Below are positions 23,472-28,591 of a DNA stretch of 64,000 nucleotides, in pieces. The notes under the pieces are model-generated. The model had not been told where the DNA came from. It saw only the letters and a program-made list of their open reading frames with translations, and searched no databases. Every line of letters begins with the position of its first letter. Position 1 is the first letter of the stretch. The position numbers and the translations under genes are program-made. Source of the DNA: Candidatus Moanibacter sp. (GTDB lineage Bacteria; Verrucomicrobiota; Verrucomicrobiia; Opitutales; UBA2987); the NCBI GenBank assembly GCA_965215885.1, contig CBDCEW010000104.1, positions 256,001 to 320,000 on the forward strand, given 5' to 3'.

Positions 23472-24806
23472 ATGAGGAAGAAATATATATCCCCACGTAA
23501 GTTCATCAAGCCCTCGTTTGCCTATTTGATTGAAAAGAAGCGAGATGGCGGTGAATTTTCCCAGGAGGAAATTCGATATATCGTTGATTCGGTGATGGAC
23601 AAGCAAATGCAGCAATTCCAATTAGCCGCGATGGCCATGGCCATCTATTTTCAGGGGATGTCTGCGCAGGAGACGGCCACATTGGCGGAAGAGATGATGT
23701 TGTCCGGGGAAGTTATCGATTTGTCCAAAATCACGAAACCAAAGATCGATAAATACTCAACCGGTGGAGTTGGTGATAAGACATCCCTGGTACTAGCGCC
23801 GCTTGCCGCAGCCTGCGGAGTGGTTATGCCGATGATGAATGGAGTGGACGAGGAATTTGTTATTAGCAATCTGGATAAATTATCGGCGATTCAGGGATTT
23901 AATAAATCGATGGATCTCGAACAGTTTGTGAAACAGCTGAAAACGGTCAACTGTGCTATAATCGAACAGGATCCGCTGATCGCGCCGGTCGATGAAATTC
24001 TCTACAAGATGCGACAGAAGACGGCGACGATTCCGAGCCTGCCTCTCATTACGGGAAGCGTCCTAAGCCGTAAACTCGCTCAGGGCGCCGAGGGTTTGGT
24101 TATCGATGTAAAATGGGGAAACGGATCCTTCATAAAAGAAATCGAGCAGGCAAAACAGCTGGCGAGGTCAATTACGCGGGTGGGGCGTTCCATGAAGCGA
24201 CGCTGTGTCGCTCTTGTGACGGATATGAATCAGCCATTGGGAGATTGCGTGGGCACAGGGTTGGAGATAAAGGAAGCGATCGAGTTACTTAAGGGGGAAG
24301 GTCCCGCGGATTTGCAGGAACTAGTGTTGAAACTGGGAATGGAGATTGTCCGATTGGCCGGTGTGGCGGGATCCACGTTGTCGGCTAAACAGACGGTGCA
24401 GCGTCATTTGAGCGACGGATCCGCTCTGGGCCGATTTAAGCAGATGATTAAGGCCCAAGGAGGTAAGGCGTCGCTAGTGGACAATCCGGAGGAATTTCCC
24501 AAGGCTAAATACATACGCAAGTTGCCCGCTCCTAAAAGGGGATACGTGCATACGATTAATGCGGGTATGATCGCTCGAGGGGTACAGCTTCTCGCCCAGA
24601 ACAGAAGAGGAAAGTACGATCCGGCGGTTGGGGTATCGGAAATCAGAAAAGTTGGCACGCAAGTAAAACAGGGTGAACCGCTGATGATGATTCATTACAA
24701 CGATGAAGTTCGACTTGAAAGTGCCCTGGAGTATCTTCGCTCGGCCTATCGTCTCGCACCGAAGCGCCCGAATCCTCCGCAACTCATCGCGGAGAGGGTA
24801 GCTTAG
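23472..24806 (+). CDS. Thymidine/pyrimidine-nucleoside phosphorylase homologue with degenerate active-site motifs
   Basis: IEKKRDG, DKYSTGGVGDKTSL, LDKL, DVKWGNGSF, TDMNQPLG, GVSEIRKVG fold motifs; the glycine-rich loop is replaced (see findings). Confidence 0.85.
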   Translation: MRKKYISPRKFIKPSFAYLIEKKRDGGEFSQEEIRYIVDSVMDKQMQQFQLAAMAMAIYFQGMSAQETATLAEEMMLSGEVIDLSKITKPKIDKYSTGGVGDKTSLVLAPLAAACGVVMPMMNGVDEEFVISNLDKLSAIQGFNKSMDLEQFVKQLKTVNCAIIEQDPLIAPVDEILYKMRQKTATIPSLPLITGSVLSRKLAQGAEGLVIDVKWGNGSFIKEIEQAKQLARSITRVGRSMKRRCVALVTDMNQPLGDCVGTGLEIKEAIELLKGEGPADLQELVLKLGMEIVRLAGVAGSTLSAKQTVQRHLSDGSALGRFKQMIKAQGGKASLVDNPEEFPKAKYIRKLPAPKRGYVHTINAGMIARGVQLLAQNRRGKYDPAVGVSEIRKVGTQVKQGEPLMMIHYNDEVRLESALEYLRSAYRLAPKRPNPPQLIAERVA

Positions 24807-24949
24807 GAATCTTATAGTAGCTCCAGGTTATTCATCCAAGGGGCCGAGTGGAGCCGCAGGAAAAACTCGGCGAGGCCCCTTTGTGAATAACTTGGCCGAT
24901 CAGTGGTTGGCGATGGGTCAAAGAGTTTGTTTGGCTAAGGGTGCAAATA

Positions 24950-25116
24950 TTCAAAGGCAGCCGTCCACTACGAACTTAGGAATCAGTCCGAAGAGGACTT
25001 CCGACAGAATTTCGAGTGGACGGCCTGCCTGGATGACCGAAAACGAACACTCAGTTTACATCCTCATAACAGGATCCAACTATAAGGACTTCGCCTGGAC
25101 ATCCAGTGCCTTTGAA
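24950..25116 (+). ncRNA. Predicted IS110 bridge RNA (target-binding loop 24960-25024, donor-binding loop 25029-25106)
   Basis: Enclosing stem TTCAAAGGCA/TGCCTTTGAA. Two stem-loops, each CGAA-[guide]-hairpin-[guide]-TTCG, whose guides match the target and donor sequences. The true transcript probably starts further upstream. Confidence 0.82.
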
Positions 25117-25149
25117 AAAAGCAAAAAGACAAACTAAAGGAACAAAGGG

Positions 25150-26460
25150 ATGCAGAAAAGGGAAAAAACAAATCGATATAGTGTGGTGATAGGAATTGAT
25201 TGGGCGGATCAGAAAAACGATCTGTGGATCATAGAGAGCGAAACGGGAAAAGGGACCCATCGACAGGTGGCGCAGGATGCGGTCAGCTTGCACGAATTTG
25301 CCGTAGAGATGAGAGAAAAGTATGCCAGCGTGGGCAAGCGCATGGCCATGGTGGTGGACCAGAAGCGAGGAGGGTTGATCAACTTTCTGATGGGCTTGGA
25401 GTTTGTCGATATCTATCCAGTGCATGCGGCCAGGGCGAAGGATTATCGCCGGGCGCTGTATCCATCAGGGGCCAAGAGCGACCCGGTCGATGCGCAAATA
25501 CACGCGGAGTTTTTCCTCAAACATCCCGAGCTTTTTACCAAATGTTTCATACCTGACACGGCCCAAACACGGGAGCTGAACCTGTTGTGCGAGGACCGCC
25601 GTGGATTCGTCGATCAGGCTACCAGCCTCGAACAGCAGTTGGGCAGTTGTCTGAAGCAATATAACCCTTTGGTCTTGAAATTGTTCGATGATCTAGGCAG
25701 TGGCCTGTGCCTGCACTTTATATTGCGTTGGCCGACCCTCAAGAAGCTGCACAGAGCATCGGAGGGTGTCTTGCGAAAGTTCTTCTATAAGCACAACTGT
25801 CGCAGTGACGCCAAAATCCAGGAGCGTCTCGAATTGATCGGTAACGCACGAGCCTTGACCGAAGATGCAGCCATCATTGAAGCATCCAGCAGAAAAGCAC
25901 AGACGTTGGCCGGACAGCTTTTGACCCTGTGCCCGCAGATCAAAGCGTATGAGAAGCGTATCAGGGAGCTATTCAGAAGCCATCCCGATGCAGCCGTGTT
26001 CAGTGGCATTCCCGGAGCCGGCGAGGTCATGAGTCCCCGGTTGCTGTGCGCGTTCGGGACCGATCGTTCGCACTTCGAAACGGCCCAGAACATGACCCAG
26101 TGGAATGGATCCGCTCCGGTCACGATCAACAGCGGGCAGGACAAAAGAACCGGACAACCGAAACGAATGGTCAACTGGCGGTGGGCGGCTCCTACCTTCG
26201 TGCGGCAAAGTTTCGTTGAATTTGCCGAACATTCGATCCGAAACTGTGCCTGGGCAAAGGCCTTTTACCAGATCAAAAAAGAACAGGGCAAACCCCGCCA
26301 AACCATTCTTCGTGCCCTCGCTCTCAAGTGGACCCGCATTCTGTTTCGCTGTTGGCAAAATAGCGAACGCTACGATGAGCAAAAGTATCTCCAATCGCTC
26401 CAACGCACCGGTTCACCGGTGTGGAAAAGACTTCAGCAAGCAAATGCCAACGCCTTGTAA
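25150..26460 (+). CDS. IS110-family DEDD recombinase/transposase
   Basis: VIGIDWADQKND, AKSDPVDA (RuvC-like acidic residues), IPGAGEV, GSAPVTINSG (Tnp-domain Ser), WAKAFY, RALALKW. Confidence 0.95.
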   Translation: MQKREKTNRYSVVIGIDWADQKNDLWIIESETGKGTHRQVAQDAVSLHEFAVEMREKYASVGKRMAMVVDQKRGGLINFLMGLEFVDIYPVHAARAKDYRRALYPSGAKSDPVDAQIHAEFFLKHPELFTKCFIPDTAQTRELNLLCEDRRGFVDQATSLEQQLGSCLKQYNPLVLKLFDDLGSGLCLHFILRWPTLKKLHRASEGVLRKFFYKHNCRSDAKIQERLELIGNARALTEDAAIIEASSRKAQTLAGQLLTLCPQIKAYEKRIRELFRSHPDAAVFSGIPGAGEVMSPRLLCAFGTDRSHFETAQNMTQWNGSAPVTINSGQDKRTGQPKRMVNWRWAAPTFVRQSFVEFAEHSIRNCAWAKAFYQIKKEQGKPRQTILRALALKWTRILFRCWQNSERYDEQKYLQSLQRTGSPVWKRLQQANANAL

Positions 26461-26571
26461 ACACAACATGAGAAAAAACTCAAAAAATCCCTTGACGGAC
26501 TACCTCAGTTTTCTGTCGGTCTATACTGAGTCGGAATGTCGCTCTGTCACGGTGAAATGTCCGGGCTAGCA

Positions 26572-27129
26572 TCAGGTGCGTCCCAGATAGGAGCCGTCGG
26601 AGGTACTGACTTTGATGACATCGCCTGTTTTTATAAACAGGGGCGTCTGAACGACGATTCCGGTTTCGGTGGTGACTGGTTTAAGGGCGGCACTGGAAGT
26701 GTCACCTCGGACGGCGTCGGGTGCCTCCGTTACATTCAGTTCCACTGCTGAAGGGAGCTGGATCTGGACCGCCTGGTCTTCGACAAAGAGCACTTCGTAA
26801 AAATTGCCTTCGGAGAGGAATCTCCTGGAGTTCTCGATAAGTTCCTCGTTGAGAACCGTGTCCTCAAACGTCTCCGGGTTGAGAAAGTGGTAGCCCTCTT
26901 GATCGAGGTAGCTGAATTCTAATCGCTGCGTGTCGGTGACGAGGAATCGCACGGAATCGGTGTTGCGAAATTTCGTGGTTGTGGTGGTGTTTGACTGGAG
27001 ATTGCGCATCGTAACCTGGACGAATCCGGCCTGTCGTCCCTGGGTTCGATGAATCATATCGAGTACGAGGTGAGGCACGCTATTATAGTCTAGCACCTTT
27101 CCTTTACGAATTTCGGTTGGTGAAGCCAT
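26572..27129 (-). CDS. efp: Elongation factor P
   Basis: [51 protein letters not shown]. Confidence 0.95.
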
Positions 27130-27250: not shown

Positions 27251-28591
27251 ATGAAACAAAGAACAATTCTGCGGGAAGCCTCGATAAAGGGTAGGGGGCT
27301 GCACACAGGGGAAGACGTTCGTCTTTCCATCAAGCCGGCTCCGGAAAATCATGGAGTGGTGTTTCAGCGCATCGATCTTTACGGAAAGCCAAAGATCAGG
27401 CCGAATGTCGATGTAGTTTCGGATCTGGTTTACAATACGGGAGTTACCTTCGGACACGCCAAGCTGCATACAGTGGAACATGTGTTGAGCGCATTTAACG
27501 GGGCGGGAGTGGATAATGTCCTTATCGAAATCGATGCAAGCGAGCCACCGGTGCTCGATGGTTCCGCCAAACAATATGTGAAACTTATCGAGGAGGCAGA
27601 ACCAGCGGAGCAGAAAAAGGCTCGGCGATTTGTCGAGCTGGAGGAACCTATATCATTCACCGAAGGGAGCAGATCGCTGATTGCGTTGCCCTATGATGGA
27701 CTCAAGGTTACTTGCACTTCTTCTGATAATCGCGGAATTCATACCCAACATCTCTCCATCGAAATTGATCCGGAATCTTATGTGACTGATATCGCACCTG
27801 CCCGGACCTTTGCGATATATGAAGACATCGAAGAATTGCTGAAATTGGGAAAGATTCGCGGGGGAAGTCTTGATTCGGCGATCGTGCTTAAGGGTGACAG
27901 GGTAATATCGAAGGAGCCTTTACGATTCAAGGATGAGTTTGTCCGCCACAAGATTCTCGATATACTTGGGGACATCGGTTTGCTCGAATTTCCTCTCAAA
28001 GCCCACATAGTTGCGGTAAATCCCGGGCACGCCCTGAATTTCCAGCTTACTAAGGGTCTCCATGACCGTTACAACGGCGAGAGACGGACAACAAAAGCGA
28101 AGAAAAAAAAGCCGGTGGAAGCAGCAGCTGTAGGGCCGACGGAAACACAGCTCGATATCAGGCGTATCCTTGATATCCTGCCCCATCGCTATCCATTAGT
28201 CATGATTGACCGGGTGGTGGAGATAAAAAGCGAGATGGAACTCAAGGCGATAAAGAACGTATCCATCAATGAGCCTTACTTTCGAGGGCACTTTCCGGGC
28301 CGCCCCGTAATGCCGGGGGTATTACAGATAGAAGCGATGGCACAGGCGGCTGGGATACTCATGTTGAGGCATGTGGCAAGTGAGGGGAAAGTGGCCTATT
28401 TTATGAGCTGCGATAAAGTAAAGTTACGGCAGCCGGTTGTTCCGGGTGACCAACTTGAAATCGACGTCAAGATAAACAAGATGCGCGCAAAGAAGATCGC
28501 GACCGCTTCCGGCACCTGCAAGGTGGGGGGAAAGGTAGTGTCATCAGCCGATCTGATGTTTTCAATCTTGGATGCACCGGAAGATACTTGA
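27251..28591 (+). CDS. lpxC: Bifunctional LpxC deacetylase / FabZ dehydratase
   Basis: [36 protein letters not shown] (LpxC), then [32 protein letters not shown] (FabZ). Confidence 0.95.

Follow-up and report, generated by a model that had tools for sequence, protein, structure and literature searches.

The 64,000-nucleotide stretch of DNA analyzed here, hereafter the window (Candidatus Moanibacter sp., Verrucomicrobiota; GenBank assembly GCA_965215885.1, contig CBDCEW010000104.1, positions 256,001 to 320,000 of the forward strand), carries at 24813-26512 (+) a 1700-bp element set between two CT cores, which is very probably an active insertion sequence (IS) of the IS110 group that homes by means of a bridge RNA. 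From left to right, the element comprises a left end (LE) of 337 bp (24813-25149), in which a predicted structured RNA is encoded (24950-25116), an open reading frame (ORF) of 436 amino acids (aa; 25150-26460) and a right end (RE) of 52 bp (26461-26512). The host genome (6.36 Mb, 105 contigs) holds 10 full-length copies along with three fragments of 489, 210 and 72 bp. All 10 copies have intact ORFs, differ from the window copy at 0-3 positions, and share identical ends and a CT core on both sides, and nine of them lie between xxAGGAAT-CT and CT-GTCGG(A/T)C, which is the site read by one of the two loops of the predicted RNA (the target loop).

Four public runs were examined over 24500-26800 as contigs, which drop rare forms. 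In the contigs of three of them (two RNA libraries and one of unrecorded kind), 24809 is followed directly by 26512: 1702 bases are missing, and 3 letters at the joint (TCT) could belong to either side. This empty allele is cut exactly at the cores, which fixes the element boundaries and shows that the insertion is polymorphic in nature. A preliminary description of the window, made from its letters, had called the element intact, as the ten near-identical copies and the empty allele of the same site bear out; it had also allowed that other copies might have different ends or another core, which is the case for none of the ten. The strings and coordinates it gave (cores, flanks, stem, guides and 436-aa ORF) are present base for base, and the features of the element are as follows:

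24802-24810 (+): left target (LT) CTTAGGAAT, of which only AGGAAT (24805-10) is common to all nine canonical sites
24811-24812 (+): left CT core, CT in all copies, placed by the empty-site joint 24809 to 26512 with 3 ambiguous letters
24813-26512 (+): whole IS110-group element, 1700 bp, in 10 full-length genomic copies with at most 3 differing positions
24813-24818 (+): right donor (RD) TATAGT, also the -10-like hexamer of the putative joined-end promoter (TTGACG, 17 nt, TATAGT across RE, core and LE)
24824-24894 (+): long 5' hairpin of the left end, from the fold of 24813-25149
24950-25116 (+): predicted bridge RNA core, with an outer 10-bp helix (TTCAAAGGCA at 24950-59 with TGCCTTTGAA at 25107-16) around both guide loops, from the fold and the covariance model
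24960-25024 (+): target-binding stem-loop, with outer stem 24960-69 / 25015-24, CGAA/TTCG clamp and inner hairpin 24985-24999
24975-24984 (+): left target guide CTTAGGAATC, equal to LT plus the first core base
25001-25009 (+): right target guide, CCGACAGA at 25001-08, in which CCGAC pairs with the right target and AG with the core
25008-25009 (+): target-loop handshake guide AA, complementary to the donor's TT ahead of its core
25029-25106 (+): donor-binding stem-loop, with outer stem CTGGATG 25029-35 / CATCCAG 25100-06 and inner hairpin ATCCT/AGGAT
25050-25059 (+): left donor guide CTCAGTTTAC, matching the right end at 9/10 positions, with the mismatch at donor position 7, directly before the core
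25079-25088 (+): right donor guide ACTATA plus AG (core), ACTATAAG at 25079-86, with an 8/8 match, followed by handshake bases GA
25150-26460 (+): recombinase gene, 436 aa, with a RuvC-like DEDD domain, a coiled coil with a helical bundle read as inserted, and a Tnp domain with Ser328
26461-26512 (+): right non-coding end, 52 bp, holding the -35-like TTGACG (26492-97) and the left donor CTCAGTTTT (26504-12)
26513-26514 (+): right CT core, CT in all copies, placed by the empty-site joint
26515-26519 (+): right target (RT) GTCGG, from the sequence and the copies' flanks

The two-loop structure drawn in the preliminary description is the minimum free energy fold of 24940-25125 (-67.8 kcal/mol, z = -7.17, 0/200 shuffles equally stable), in which the 10-bp outer helix surrounds two hairpins, each with a large internal loop, a CGAA/TTCG clamp and a short inner hairpin. 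In both loops, the sequence of the 5' arm is that of the DNA top strand, so that it pairs with the bottom strand, and the 3' arm complements the top strand, the core included; the same strand rules have been published for IS621 (Durrant 2024, PMC11208160). The separate 5' hairpin at 24824-24894 keeps its pairing despite base changes in a sister element from another genus of the same family (genome G118; alignment judged by eye), and may be the counterpart of the 5' stem-loop in the bridge RNA of IS621. Within the bridge RNA itself, comparison of host and G118 sequences shows compensatory changes: A-U is replaced by G-C in the outer helix, and C-G by G-C in the target loop's inner hairpin.

To follow this RNA across relatives, loci were gathered with a protein alignment as query (a single-protein query had returned none), and 160 loci were fetched, with proteins 34-46% identical, from Verrucomicrobia, Acidobacteria, Planctomycetes, Proteobacteria, Cyanobacteria and metagenomes. 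The RNAs of the host element and its G118 sister were used to build a covariance model (R1; 171 positions, 48 pairs). Full-length matches to it, on the coding strand and directly upstream of the ORF, were present at 52/81 genome loci (57 rows) and 73/80 metagenome loci, or 125/161 together. Among 71 distinct metagenome sequences, 93.7% of pair cells were standard pairs, compared with 32-46% when partners were slid by 1-3 columns; two-sided changes occurred in 44 of the 48 pairs, all 10 outer-helix pairs covaried, and 0/500 shuffles reached the observed values, for an alignment fitted to the R1 model, which favors structure. Across these relatives the guides of the first (target) loop are widely variable, and those of the second (donor) loop conserved. 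As a minor observation, window position 24944, 6 bases ahead of the outer helix, is C in the window copy only and A in the other nine genomic copies as well as in all four public runs.

The site read by the target loop is a short interspersed repeat. Its empty form, the 13-mer AGGAAT-CT-GTCGG, has 256 exact matches in the host genome and 465 at ≤1 mismatch, as opposed to 4 for a reversed control, and it matches 4 times in the window, where 0.13 would be expected. The repeat has the consensus gcTAGGAATCTGTCGGACTtAg and often occurs in inverted pairs. A second motif, GTCGGAAT(C/G)TC, is often found ~20 bases past the target (at window 26515-26545 and at many empty genome sites), and since it repeats the target's GGAATCT and recurs, the repeat unit is longer than the 13-mer. 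The target had been taken, from few flanks, for a palindrome of the repetitive extragenic palindromic (REP) type; this was rejected, as the AGGAAT arm pairs downstream at only 55 of the 256 exact sites, with a mean folding energy over these sites of -3.83 kcal/mol vs. -2.89 kcal/mol for shuffles, and the window's one exact site folds no better than shuffles (z 0.62). In one of the public runs (X1), a short contig end joins the element's left end (before 24811) to ...AGGAATCTGTCGGACTTTGAATTC, which suggests a further insertion in another sample, ~17 bases past a target motif and at a poorly matching site.

The closest view of the relation between guide and target comes from G118, which holds >20 copies of the sister element (protein 80% identical, DNA ~81% over the element), with the same ends and core as the host element. 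The left target guide is CTTAGGAGGC in G118 vs. CTTAGGAATC in the host, that is, AGGAGGC vs. AGGAATC. Eighteen G118 loci were examined, and the left flank, available from 16, was TAGGAGT-CT in 15 cases, TAGGAGG-CT in one and AGGAAT in none, while the right flank was CT-GTCGGAC in 17/18. Empty AGGAAT-CT-GTCGG sites are nonetheless 2.5 times commoner in G118 than their AGGAGT counterparts (591 vs. 237), and a blind choice would give 15/15 AGGAGT sites with a probability of ~1e-8 (our own arithmetic). Read from the two sequences, the pair is a natural single-base guide/target switch, in which one changed guide base goes with one changed site base. The core-adjacent base of the G118 guide (position 7) is mismatched, G against T, and this mismatch is evidently tolerated.

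The same relation was sought among the more distant relatives, with the element ends placed from the donor guides alone and the target guides then compared with the flanks. Out of 130 R1 matches, 111 gave all four guide segments, and 63 of these loci were kept, 54 with unique guide pairs. Over these 54 non-redundant loci, the longest run in common with the locus's own flank averaged 6.35 bases for the left guide, vs. 3.32 with other loci's flanks, and 7.59 vs. 3.75 for the right guide. Runs of at least 7 bases were found for 32/54 own pairs on the left and 40/54 on the right, compared with 0.9% and 3.2% of non-own pairs, and 0/2000 permutations reached the observed guide-flank sum. Guide-target covariation across homologues, put forward as a check in the preliminary description, is thus seen both in the G118 switch and in these relatives. 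The full 10/10 match it had claimed for the left target guide holds in part: AGGAAT and the core are present in all nine sites, and the three outermost bases vary among them, so that the effective left recognition is AGGAAT plus core and the rest of the match is partly luck.

Among the relatives, neighboring copies were also observed. In a Bryobacterales metagenome-assembled genome (L080, 820-2640), two copies lie 63 bp apart, each in its own repeated target CTCCGCTGGTC-CT-CCGCTG; this pair of model matches was considered as a tandem dimer, which was rejected in favor of two separate insertions, each in its own target. Neighboring copies likewise occur in L121/L122 and L062.

The donor loop reads the joined ends CTCAGTTTT-CT-TATAGT, its right guide matching at 8/8 positions and its left guide at 9/10, as had been correctly reported. 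The single left-guide mismatch (A against T) falls at donor position 7, which matches in only 10/32 relatives and where A against T is the commonest state (12/32). As such mismatches are common in relatives and this position is described as mismatch-tolerant in IS621 (PMC11208160), the 9/10 match is family-typical rather than a defect. Position 7 is also where a handshake signal was found among the 27 unique relatives with a CT core at both ends: in the target loop, the base that directly follows the core-pairing AG on its 3' side agrees with donor position 7 in 27/27 and with target position 7 in 1/27, and the equivalent donor-loop base matches target position 7 in 25/27 and donor position 7 in 1/27, with no handshake signal at position 6. 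Such non-cognate handshake pairing has been described for IS621 (PMC11208158). In the host element, position 7 is T in target and donor alike, and the target-loop AA (25008-09) can pair at both bases with the donor's TT. A subgroup of relatives (L101, L119, L095, L099, L111, L130, L191 and others), excluded from the handshake count, has right donor guides ending in ...ATATTGCC, and, to judge from its ends, its core may not be CT but GA/AA-like, with one extra base between CTCAG and the core.

Joining RE, core and LE brings TTGACG (26492-97) to 17 nt ahead of TATAGT (24813-18), whereas CGGAGA occupies the -35 position in the integrated copy. This putative junction promoter is a consensus match only, and the host's own promoter rules may differ. 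In IS110 elements, a promoter is reported to be rebuilt across the core in the circular form (PMC11208160). The right donor half would thus double as the -10 box, which helps explain the conservation of the donor guides.

The protein encoded by the element matches both IS110 domains, PF01548 (DEDD_Tnp_IS110, E 1.2e-17, residues 14-173) and PF02371 (Transposase_20, E 2.3e-9, residues 283-374), and has 1584 relatives at E ≤ 1e-10. D17, D111, D114 and S328 are invariant in 38/38 aligned relatives, as is the pair S328-G329, and position 70 is D in this recombinase and E in 34/38 relatives. Judged from order and spacing rather than from a direct alignment with IS621, D17/D70/D111/D114 and S328 would correspond to the IS621 catalytic residues D11/E60/D102/D105 and S241 (Hiraizumi 2024, PMC11208158). 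An AlphaFold model of the 436-aa protein (predicted local distance difference test, pLDDT, 89.2; predicted template modeling score, pTM, 0.84) was compared with the Protein Data Bank (PDB) by Foldseek, and ranks 1-10 for this predicted model were all IS621 or ISCro4 recombinase chains (E 6e-13 to 9e-12; template modeling score, TM, 0.65-0.67 on the target; 16-17% identity), the best being the IS621 recombinase (E 6e-13), with TIGR-Tas and Nop5-type proteins below the top 10. In the model, a helical bundle at ~residues 172-239 sits between two long helices (138-171 and 240-277), and is read as an insertion in the coiled coil that would make up most of the length excess over IS621. With both domains, IS621 as best structural match, and the published layout and strand rules, the protein and its RNA agree with the IS110 DEDD recombinase and bridge RNA recognized in the preliminary description. 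One relative (P0115, 763 aa, on a 3.9-kb contig) carries kinase, WD40 and other Pfam domains beside both IS110 domains, and may be a fusion or a gene-call artefact.

The tenth genomic copy (G000:C84:54654-56353, i.e., locus L009 1501-3200, minus strand) lies between ACCTCAGTTTA-CT and CT-TATGGGGAG, so that its site reads ACCTCAGTTTA-CT-TATGGGG, without a match to the target loop. This site matches the donor loop instead, at 10/10 positions for the left donor guide (including A at position 7) and 6/8 for the right donor guide. The 11-mer CTCAGTTTACT has only two occurrences in the genome, where chance would give ~3, and the tenth-copy junction accounts for one of them. The flanks read as one long open frame, interrupted by the element, whose product looks like a multi-pass membrane protein. 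We also considered that the flanks might be the ends of an older related element, which was rejected as a BLAST of 400 bp from each side gave only short chance-level matches. In IS621/IS622 assays, a donor is reported to recombine with donor-like genomic sequence via complexes of two donor-binding loops (DBL-DBL; Perry 2025, 10.1101/2025.05.14.653916), and in laboratory insertion assays 4 sites with 11 reads fell in an 'LD+RD' class (Xie 2026, 10.64898/2026.08.31.748434). The likeness lies in a site that matches the donor loop and not the target loop; the difference is that the cases in these publications come from laboratory assays, whereas the tenth copy is fixed in a natural genome, inside an ORF. 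We are evenly divided on whether it represents a natural, fixed case of the donor-donor reaction, with the donor loop serving as a second homing device in the wild.

Taken as an active, bridge-RNA-guided IS, the element would leave as a circle or an equivalent joined form, in which the right and left ends meet across the CT core. The junction would form the near-consensus promoter TTGACG-17-TATAGT and so transcribe the left end, and the transcript would fold such that the outer helix holds the two internal-loop hairpins. The first loop would then read the genomic site AGGAAT-CT-GTCGG and the second, likewise, the joined ends, after which the loop-bound 436-aa DEDD/Ser recombinase would exchange strands at CT, for an insertion without duplication beyond the core. 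In this scheme, transcription of the RNA, its binding by the recombinase, the circular form and the chemistry are taken over from IS621 and would proceed as they do there, and by the same analogy the element is potentially reprogrammable.

A number of observations weigh against this interpretation. The circle back-joint was absent from the contigs of the four runs (which drop rare forms), as was the RE-CT-LE junction from the host assembly. RNA-library contigs from two runs cover the element, one of them (234 bases, 24866-25099) being deeper than its neighbor, and such contigs cannot show transcription, nor the strand, ends or level of an RNA. A sigma-70-type scan of the integrated element gave 0 sites vs. 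1.7 expected, which also fits a promoter existing only across the joined ends. An Rfam 15 scan of 24500-26800 (E ≤ 1) returned no family, i.e., no curated model matches, which differs from an absence of RNA, and R1 at E ≤ 1 had no match in 29/81 genome loci (enterobacterial relatives among them) and 7/80 metagenome loci; the RNA of the genome loci concerned may be too diverged for the model. In a sequence search against solved structures only the Tnp domain aligns (ISCro4 8.8e-5, IS621 1.7e-4), and the NCBIfam family NF033542 (IS110 family RNA-guided transposase) scores 119.2 bits, under its 140-bit cut-off, despite being the best-scoring NCBIfam family for this recombinase, which is a divergent IS110 family member. 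In the flank comparison, 48 of the 111 loci were dropped because one end was not placeable, and among the 54 analyzed, 14 left and 6 right guides have <5 consecutive bases in common with their own flank, which could reflect misplaced ends or off-target copies. One copy in ten sits outside the target-loop site. Lastly, with T at position 7 of both target and donor, the handshake bases cannot discriminate between them, and that of the target loop is able to pair with the cognate target, a pairing of handshake base and own DNA that is reported to hinder strand exchange in IS621 (PMC11208158).

Three other explanations were considered. The element might be a recently dead fossil, whose copies spread earlier and whose RNA-target match is a relic. 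This would agree with the circle junction being seen neither in run contigs nor in the assembly, and with the shared T at position 7, which, read against IS621, might lower activity; it is nevertheless very unlikely given 10 copies with intact ORFs and ≤3 differing positions, a presence/absence polymorphism with the site empty in the contigs of three of four runs, and one copy that interrupts a long ORF and is thus unlikely to be old. Alternatively, the recombinase protein might pick the target by itself, e.g., from a palindrome shape, and the loop-flank matches be a by-product or an auxiliary check. The target is indeed highly repeated (465 matches), as with REP-homing IS110 elements, and a target stem-loop is reported to add specificity beyond base pairing in ISPpu10 (10.64898/2026.03.19.712850). 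However, the single guide-base difference between the host (G000) and G118 tracks a single site-base difference despite abundant alternative sites, guides track flanks over 54 relatives with unrelated targets, and the repeat forms no consistent hairpin (55/256 sites; -3.83 vs. -2.89 kcal/mol for shuffles), which leaves target choice by the protein alone highly improbable, although an extra protein or structure layer may exist on top of guide pairing.

It is likewise conceivable that the left-end motifs work as DNA, in the form of subterminal protein sites or hairpins, and that no bridge RNA is made. The contigs give no transcript evidence and the integrated copy has no promoter (0 sites), in keeping with this. 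Several lines of evidence nonetheless make it extremely unlikely: the helices stay paired through frequent G-U/U-G states, whose complements on the opposite strand would be A-C mismatches, so that the pairing argues for an RNA on the coding strand and not for DNA; the structure lies on the coding strand in every full match upstream of an ORF; the junction promoter points into the RNA structure; and the homologous IS621 RNA is experimentally established (PMC11208160). Target choice through a bridge RNA, by an element that is still mobile, is the interpretation we retain.

The mechanism is known from publications since 2024, and within the IS110 group with left-end bridge RNA the element is typical, if divergent. 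The IS1111 or seekRNA elements, which Siddiquee reportedly described in 2024, are said to belong to the same recombinase family and to follow the same RNA-guided logic. The present element differs from the IS1111 group in that its RNA lies in the left end and its right end is only 52 bp, as opposed to an RNA in a long right end and 7-17-bp subterminal inverted repeats in IS1111 elements (PMC11208160), and by its short right end and the place of its RNA it falls outside that group. With IS621 and ISCro4 it shares, according to the published descriptions (PMC11208160, PMC11208158; PDB 8wt6/8wt9, 9t56), a DEDD RuvC-like domain and a Tnp domain with a conserved Ser, the CT core, a long RNA-encoding left end and a short right end, a target loop placed first and a donor loop second, loop arms that pair, core included, with the bottom strand (5' arm) and the top strand (3' arm), a promoter (putative in this element) that forms when the ends are joined, and homing to a short interspersed repeat, these two being also its best structural match. 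The variable target loop and conserved donor loop (PMC11208160) and the position-7 handshake pattern (PMC11208158), the latter read in this element's relatives, are further points in common with IS621.

It departs from IS621 and ISCro4 in its low identity (16-17% in the structural alignment, with only the Tnp domain aligning by sequence) and in the covarying 10-bp outer helix that ties both loops together. Compared with IS621 specifically, the protein is longer (436 aa vs. 326 residues, PMC11208158), with the ~70-residue helical bundle apparently accounting for most of the excess, the second catalytic position would be D instead of E, and the left end measures 337 bp, vs. a 191-bp left end and a 177-nt RNA reported for IS621. 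In insertion pattern, the element resembles ISPpu9 (PMC12288879) and ISPpu10 (10.64898/2026.03.19.712850) of P. putida, which are likewise reported as multi-copy, with all insertions in one repeated intergenic sequence; for ISPpu10, specificity is reported to be gated a second time by a GC-rich stem-loop in the target, whereas the repeat here shows no consistent hairpin (55/256). A literature search returned no paper joining "bridge RNA" with "Verrucomicrobi", although the clade may figure among the thousands of predicted orthologues listed in the supplementary tables of Durrant 2024 (PMC11208160).

While the biology is ordinary, being a new member of a known mechanism, this case adds a large and distant clade whose RNA has a closed three-way structure, a natural single-base guide/target switch and an empty allele, and further a plausible natural donor-donor insertion in the tenth copy. 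Guides, core, ends, target and junction promoter are all readable from sequence in a clade distant from IS621. Bridge recombinases are being actively developed into programmable tools for DNA insertion, excision and inversion, and to our knowledge few orthologues have been characterized so far. The two natural experiments, i.e., the one-base guide/target difference between sister elements with abundant decoys left untouched, and the fixed insertion at a mimic of the donor, would offer ready-made positive controls for specificity rules outside the IS621 clade.

As for the genomic setting, the element starts 5 bases past the stop codon of a pyrimidine-nucleoside-phosphorylase-like gene (23472-24806), and on its other side, 58 bases away, comes the end of an opposite-strand gene for elongation factor P (26572-27129). 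Further downstream, a 446-aa ORF (27251-28591) looks, by eye, like a fusion, LpxC-like in its N-terminal half and FabZ-like in its C-terminal half.

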